A stretch of 25,289 nt of DNA, taken from a virus. Its lineage: Duplodnaviria > Heunggongvirae > Uroviricota > Caudoviricetes. Location of the stretch: positions 1 to 25,289 of the IMG/VR virus record IMGVR_UViG_2531839265_000001. The stretch is one strand, 5' to 3'. Below are positions 2,301-2,594 of this stretch, piece after piece. The notes beneath the pieces were generated by a model. The model did no database searches, was not told the origin of the DNA, and was given only the letters and a program-made list of their open reading frames with translations. Within the stretch, counting starts at the first letter, position 1. Every line of letters starts with the position of its first letter. The translations under genes and the position numbers were made by a program.

Positions 2301-2594
2301 TCAGTAACAACTGCGCCTTCCGGTAATTTCATGCAGGCAAATACCGGACAACCAATAACGATCATCTTCTGTTGCTTCCAGCATTGGCTCACCAAACCAC
2401 TCCGTCGTGGCGCGACCATCAGCTGCTTTGTAGTGGATCAAGTTCTGGTTTTCGCCATCCGCATACTGCGCGCGGGCTTTAACCTCCCCCTATTCATCAC
2501 TGATGAGCATCTCCACCAGTTGAGACAACTCAAACTTAAACGGAGCAGCATCAGCACCAATTACAATCGGTTTGTTTTCTGTTTTTTCCATCAT
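2301..2594 (-). pseudogene. small hypothetical protein gene with strong RBS, interrupted by an in-frame TAG at 2490-2492
   Basis: AGGAGG RBS then ATG at 2594; translation MMEKTENKPIVIGADAAPFKFELSQLVEMLISDE-stop-GEVKARAQYADGENQNLIHYKAADGRATTEWFGEPMLEATEDDRYWLSGICLHEITGRRSCY. The downstream 62 codons stay open and protein-like but have no start of their own. Confidence 0.4.

Follow-up and report, generated by a model that had tools for sequence, protein, structure and literature searches.

A small gene interrupted by an amber codon beside the terminase genes of an Escherichia coli prophage is very probably a pseudogene of the phiP27 L33 family

The window analyzed here is a 25,289-nucleotide stretch of a caudoviricete virus record (IMG/VR IMGVR_UViG_2531839265_000001) whose minus strand, as read directly from the sequence, carries a small reading frame broken by an in-frame amber codon. 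Comparative analysis makes it very probable that this frame is a pseudogene, a loss-of-function allele that arose naturally in a small accessory gene carried by lambdoid and P27-like prophages, and sequence similarity assigns the window copy by descent, as a pseudogene, to the phiP27 L33 / phrog_1935 family. As a textbook pseudogene in a dispensable accessory gene, it is of little biological consequence. Its practical consequence lies in annotation: EHP66407.1 (33 aa) and WP_249819380.1 (46 aa) are fragments of one dead gene and are not countable as proteins.

The features of the locus are collected in Table 1. Of the two tandem ATG codons, the second is likely the start of the gene, because it is the only ATG with a workable 5-nt spacing from the Shine-Dalgarno (SD) sequence and is the RefSeq start in relatives, where the homologs are annotated from it as 98-aa proteins. 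The frame opened at 2591 comprises 97 codons, with the TAG at codon 34 and a TGA after 62 further open codons. An earlier note on this DNA had described AGGAGG and ATG ahead of exactly such a frame, which matches the sequence when counted from the second ATG; it placed the amber codon correctly, and its end at 2594 takes in the first ATG, a trivial discrepancy. The same note called the 62 codons open and protein-like, a description that fits codons 35-79, which keep the ancestral frame, and does not fit the last 17 sense codons, which are frameshifted and open by chance. With 0.040 stops per codon in the window, all frames counted, 62 open codons have a probability of about 0.08; openness past the TAG, taken alone, is weak evidence of coding, and it is homology that shows a former coding sequence. 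Past the TAG, no in-frame restart with an SD was found: the ATGs nearby lie in other frames, and the in-frame TTG at 2441 is not preceded by an SD. The 46-aa frame that opens at this TTG would also lack strands 1-2 of the fold described below.

Table 1. Coordinates of the interrupted gene and of the homopolymer-length differences in the window
Feature	Position	Strand	Description or basis
Shine-Dalgarno sequence AGGAGG	2597..2602	(-)	Sequence
Tandem starts ATG-ATG	2589..2594	(-)	2594-2592 and 2591-2589; sequence
Translatable remainder, 33 codons	2493..2591	(-)	MEKTENKPIVIGADAAPFKFELSQLVEMLISDE; annotated as EHP66407.1 in E. coli 4_1_47FAA
Codon 29 CTC (Leu)	2505..2507	(-)	CGC/TGC (Arg/Cys) in intact relatives; allele alignment
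Premature amber stop TAG	2490..2492	(-)	Ancestral TGG (Trp34); comparison with intact copies
Former codons 35-79	2355..2489	(-)	Ancestral frame, now untranslated; allele alignment
Y50N, S69P, H79Y	2444-2442, 2387-2385, 2357-2355	(-)	Private substitutions; residues invariant in intact alleles
2-bp deletion junction	2354..2355	(-)	CGTCATCCTGG in relatives, CGTTAT--TGG in the window
Frameshifted tail	2301..2354	(-)	WLSGICLHEITGRRSCY and stop (TGA 2303-2301) in place of conserved PGCPVFAGMKLPEGAVVTE
Ancestral TAA stop	2299-2297	(-)	Four bases past the frameshifted TGA
46-aa TTG ORF, mechanical	2301..2441	(-)	Within the dead downstream part; RefSeq WP_249819380.1
Homopolymer indels	~1705, 1821, 4415, 5236, 5278, 7694, 7702, 8502, 10651		Window-private
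Homopolymer indels, continued	~17836, 18965, 19793, 20367, 23840, 25245		Window-private

To understand the origin of the amber codon, the locus was compared with its relatives. A 451-nt region of it has matches in 211 of 5,426 complete E. coli genomes and in phage phiP27, at 94-96% nucleotide identity, and the matched loci are annotated as a 98-aa hypothetical protein (phiP27 L33, WP_062873952.1, WP_040092205.1). For phiP27 L33 (P27p33, NP_543085.1), the identity is 96% over 444 nt, or 98% of the query. A scan of IMG/VR with an allele-neutral 30-mer (TRG at the amber codon, GGK at the next), together with loci fetched earlier, yielded 81 intact copies, among them phiP27 gene L33, E. coli prophages and 76 IMG/VR viral contigs. 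Codon 34 is TGG (Trp) in every one of the 81, followed by GGT in 72 and GGG in nine. Position 34, which falls within the conserved core F18..G93, was also compared in 22 diverse family members (Escherichia, Shigella, Salmonella, Yersinia): 19 have Trp there, two Phe and one Ser, and none has a stop. The alignment with homologs that the earlier note had proposed thus gives a sense codon at the TAG position in all intact copies, and these comparisons show that TAG arose from TGG, the second base of the codon having changed from G to A. Among the readings offered in that note, the nonsense mutation is the one borne out, although its epithet "recent" calls for qualification, since the mutation predates the strain, being present on at least 19 contigs from independent samples and in three haplotypes.

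The intact reference protein of the family matches phrog_1935 in PHROGs (E = 3.7e-60), annotated as "unknown function", and members of the phiP27 L33 / phrog_1935 group are at least 98 aa long when intact, with about 131 aa in one variant. Pfam gave no match for the intact protein, and profile searches against PDB sequences returned nothing significant (E > 0.1). An exhaustive profile search recovered 724 representatives at 50% identity (E <= 0.001), many of which are stand-alone proteins of about 60 aa with FKF.L.Q.V.I..S.E.G.V..RA.Y...ENQY.I.Y.AADGRA...W..ES.L as their common core pattern. The carrier phages include phiP27, Escherichia phage vB_EcoM-613R2, Yersinia phages vB_YpM_41 and vB_YpM_44, ESSI2 phages and Burkholderia phage Bcep176 (gp32). 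Among the family proteins collected here (P0119-P0262), most are small and stand-alone, e.g. P0141, P0181 and P0193; P0119 and P0126 contain tandem duplications, and in P0136 and P0180 the domain forms the C- or N-terminal part of a larger protein. A by-product of the analysis is a widespread, uncharacterised SH3-like barrel domain of about 60 residues that has no Pfam model.

Structure prediction with AF2 on a deeper alignment reached a pLDDT of 89.6 and predicted the intact protein to be an SH3-like five-stranded beta-barrel; a shallow alignment had given a pLDDT of only 53, and the Foldseek search on that model was meaningless. The intact family resembles HspQ/YccV (PDB 5ycq) and other SH3-like small beta-barrels (KOW, Tudor, chromo) in structure only, since neither Pfam nor PDB profiles reveal a relationship at the sequence level. 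The predicted fold is generic and tells nothing specific about function. Residue 34 is the first residue of barrel strand 2 in the model, so that the 33-aa product would end just before strand 2 and could not fold into the barrel; the window allele as a whole would likewise be unable to form an HspQ/YccV-type fold. The position and the start region of phiP27 L33 and its prophage orthologs (WP_062873952.1, WP_040092205.1) are the same as in the window copy, which differs from phiP27 L33 in having TAG for TGG, the 2-bp deletion, R29L, Y50N, S69P and H79Y. Whole-protein similarity places the window copy in the family, whereas an uninterrupted frame across the F18..G93 core is absent from it; because of the TAG, the deletion and the substitutions, this copy cannot make the family protein.

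The amber codon is accompanied by a second lesion that had been missed in the earlier note. A 2-bp deletion at codon 80 takes out the CC of a CCTGG site and shifts the last 17 sense codons, so that the C-terminus ...DDRHPGCPVFAGMKLPEGAVVTE and its stop are turned into ...DDRYWLSGICLHEITGRRSCY and a stop, and the conserved HPGCPVFAGM..LPEGAV tail is destroyed. In agreement, tblastn with an intact 131-aa ortholog aligned residues 1-79 to window positions 2591-2355 (92% identity) and continued in another frame at 2353-2306. Comparison of the loci carrying the TAG allele revealed three haplotypes on different prophage backbones, in all of which CTC at codon 29 (R29L) is a marker linked to TAG; CTC is found in no intact copy. 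Haplotype A, represented by the window and by L082-L084, L088, L089 and L091, combines CTC at codon 29, TAG-GGG, Y50N, S69P, H79Y and the 2-bp deletion. Haplotype B (L085, in a P27-type terminase context) carries CTC and TAG only and is otherwise an intact gene of the 98-aa type, and haplotype C (L086, L087, L090) carries the same two changes in an otherwise intact gene with the C-terminus of the 131-aa type. The simplest history would be a single origin of the TAG allele, recombination into different backbones, and later additional decay within haplotype A. Exact searches matched the TAG allele neither in the 5,426 complete E. coli genomes nor in IMG/VR or JGI metagenomes, so that it is rare, and a 60-mer of it found only wild-type matches with two mismatches in the complete E. 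coli genomes. In a contig scan with the allele-neutral 30-mer, separate from that of IMG/VR, neither allele was matched.

The selective regime on the two sides of the stop was compared in the intact gene and in haplotype A. Across 43 distinct intact alleles, pN/pS is 0.18 overall, 0.43 in codons 1-33 and 0.10 in codons 35-94; by this measure the intact gene is shown to be protein-coding and under purifying selection, which is strongest downstream of the stop position. The private changes of haplotype A past the stop comprise three non-synonymous substitutions at invariant residues and the frameshift, with no synonymous change. In a rough calculation, three non-synonymous substitutions out of three have a probability of about 0.014 under the constraint of the intact gene and about 0.44 under neutrality, and the substitutions of haplotype A carry the signature expected of an untranslated region, one of relaxed constraint.

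These values also bear on the suggestion of the earlier note that the gene is deliberately short, with a functional 33-aa N-terminal peptide and a tail that is merely untranslated. Such a peptide would have a strong SD and a good start codon, and the persistence of the TAG allele on three haplotypes and backbones, rather than in one clone, could speak for it. A survey of SD sequences found AGGAGA in most wild-type copies and the stronger AGGAGG in nine of ten TAG loci, an enrichment that might reflect tuning of a short product, although one intact wild-type copy has AGGAGG too. Against this stand the homologs, which carry Trp and no stop at codon 34 when intact and run to 92-133 aa instead of all ending at the TAG position, the outcome by which the note would have recognized a genuinely short gene. 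The first 17 residues are the least conserved of the family, constraint is highest past the stop (pN/pS 0.10 against 0.43 in codons 1-33), and the peptide would contain just one strand of the predicted barrel. The few other alleles stopping at codon 34 are independent knock-outs (TGA in L092, a diverged TAG in L094), and codon 29 varies among the stop alleles (Leu, His, Arg). A deliberately short gene is accordingly held to be very unlikely, and the loss-of-function reading is preferred.

The third proposal of the note was a product dependent on readthrough or suppression, in which UAG would be decoded at a useful frequency to give the full-length protein. The 62 open codons past the stop and the intact downstream frame of haplotypes B and C are compatible with it, and programmed readthrough as in Q-beta A1, or lab amber mutants on supE/supF hosts, likewise combines a stop in frame with a protein-like reading frame that stays open beyond it. 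The target differs from these systems in that its stop is unconserved, with no recoding site kept among the relatives (a stop at codon 34 in none of the 81 intact copies), that the window holds no suppressor tRNA, and that its downstream frame is damaged: a readthrough product here would be frameshifted, without the conserved C-terminal motif, and changed at three invariant residues. ARAGORN detected no tRNA with a CUA anticodon in the window. E. coli uses the standard code, and natural isolates generally lack amber suppressors. Readthrough is thus considered extremely unlikely as an account of this gene.

The sequence quality of the window deserves separate attention. Positions 1-12591 are 100% identical to scaffold JH594556.1 of GCA_000243195.1 (E. 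coli 4_1_47FAA), a Broad HMP genome probably sequenced with 454 technology, and sister assemblies are 99.7-99.9% identical (GCA_002546435.1, ENA ERZ27238004, GCA_017773005.1, GCA_027768585.1, GCA_050715135.1). Compared with two to three sister assemblies, the window shows 15 homopolymer-length indels in 25.3 kb (one of two bases), all private to it and situated in runs of about 4-8 A or T (Table 1). They break neighbouring genes: TerS has 169 aa in the window versus 182 aa in the sisters, the holin 78 versus 91 aa, the AraC-type protein 171 versus 246 aa, and DUF968 240+96 versus 349. The DnaT-like replication gene is frameshifted in the window and intact, at 346 aa, in the sister assemblies, and xis and int, separate in those assemblies, form one fused ORF at 23576-24940. 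The 15 indels are most likely sequencing or assembly errors rather than biology, as their restriction to the window suggests.

With such errors nearby, the TAG and the 2-bp deletion might themselves be base-calling errors of a low-accuracy assembly, the more so as a G5 run adjoins the TAG (TAGGGGG) and the deletion lies at the CCTGG site. However, the target gene with both lesions is base-identical in independent assemblies or samples: this was seen in the loci L082, L083, L088, L089 and L091, which lack the homopolymer indels, and the sources that carry it include GCA_002546435.1, ENA ERZ27238004 and Logan SRR3457735 and SRR6362121. In all, 19 contigs of independent origin encode the 33-aa product. 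With the same bases recurring in this way, both lesions are genuine, and the probability of an artefact is practically negligible. The earlier note's statement that the amber codon is "not a homopolymer artefact" was right in its outcome, even though the codon does border a G run. The apparent frameshifts of the neighbouring genes, which are almost certainly assembly errors, and the real lesions of the target gene form an instructive contrast.

Other truncated alleles were drawn from the cluster holding the 33-aa product. In L092 (3001-3102), which has the wild-type CGC at codon 29, codon 34 reads TGA instead of TGG, as confirmed in DNA, and L094 (177-329) carries a diverged, more decayed TAG allele with H29 and several further downstream changes. 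Alleles whose product ends in ...SDEWGGG, known as protein products, occur on three backgrounds; their best reading is a +1 shift within the neighbouring run of G (codons 35-36), which would create a TAA. Products ending in ...AQYADG come from six contigs, one of 4.87 Mb, and were read from the protein alone as E47*; those ending in ...ADGENQ, also present in IMG/VR, were read from the protein as Y50*. The truncated-product proteins are P0003, P0008, P0012, P0013, P0016 and P0018. The gene is evidently lost easily and often. Selection in lysogens for the loss of a small SH3-like protein that is costly, toxic or a trigger of host defence would explain both the repeated independent knock-outs and the spread of the TAG allele into at least three backbones, but is judged unlikely; the presence of TAG on three haplotypes and backbones, two of them (B and C) with an otherwise intact downstream frame, is also compatible with neutral hitch-hiking and recombination, although it may reflect some retained use.

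Based on these observations, a course of events for the pseudogene can be proposed. A G-to-A transition converted Trp34 from TGG to amber TAG, and ribosomes starting at the second ATG behind the SD would terminate at UAG and release a 33-residue fragment that has strand 1 alone of the predicted barrel and presumably lacks function. The untranslated downstream part would then have drifted, the haplotype of the window gaining the 2-bp deletion and three substitutions at invariant residues. Q antitermination is established biology of lambdoid phages, and the Q gene lies at 9200-9895; late transcription would presumably run on to Nu1/gpA regardless of the stop, as RNA polymerase modified by Q is resistant to terminators. 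The prophage is complete in sister strains, so that the phage can dispense with the gene. Ordinary prophage pseudogenes, which arise when nonsense or frameshift mutations erode accessory genes of "moron" regions in lysogens, likewise show a single-base nonsense mutation at a Trp codon followed by downstream lesions, and several independent knock-out alleles in a population whose phage is otherwise intact in sister strains. The target shows no material difference from them and is slightly unusual only in that the nonsense allele has recombined into at least three backbones. The literature on strain 4_1_47FAA, and that on phiP27 with "amber", contained nothing relevant.

The minus-strand gene order around the locus is holins (4206-4931), M15 endolysin (3823-4206), PerC (2818-3090), the target gene, Nu1 and gpA. 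In these prophages the gene closes the late operon, behind the lysis cassette and ahead of cos/terminase. The order lysis cassette, target and cos/terminase recurs in phiP27 and in the E. coli loci, so that the position of the target agrees with that of its relatives. The idea that the large terminase is missing and the prophage truncated, raised by the lack of a long ORF below 1169, was rejected, as tblastn shows TerL intact and running off the end of the window, and frames reaching that end do not appear in the ORF list.

Several further observations concern the neighbourhood. The PerC gene, which encodes a PerC-family (Pch-like) transcriptional activator, is flanked by a 68-nt direct repeat (2717-2784 and 3458-3525; 96% identical, 741 nt apart) that includes a piece of a small lipoprotein-like ORF (...FLLVGCVSLDKARQ...) as well as a hairpin resembling a terminator (2786-2759) upstream of the target. 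Where relatives lack PerC, the 68-nt repeat is present once, and the PerC region, judged from these sequences, looks like a moron insertion with target duplication. Mechanical ORFs also run antisense to both genes: one of 148 aa at 2235-2681 (+) opposite the target, and one of 198 aa at 2704-3300 (+) opposite PerC. Several public assemblies annotate the latter as a gene (e.g. L082, 9292-9888), but the Pfam match belongs to the PerC frame on the other strand, and the 198-aa ORF is probably a mirror-ORF artefact. Three clustered tRNA genes (Gly-UCC, Thr-UGU, Met-CAU) at 5610-5919 (-) separate the Q antiterminator region from the lysis genes, a placement like that in many Stx-type and lambdoid prophages. 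Past the integrase end, a DUF2335 gene and a small ORF precede potC/potD (window 24946-25289; 13967-14616 in L095-L098); the element is therefore integrated beside the pot operon, with a small additional module between int and potC.
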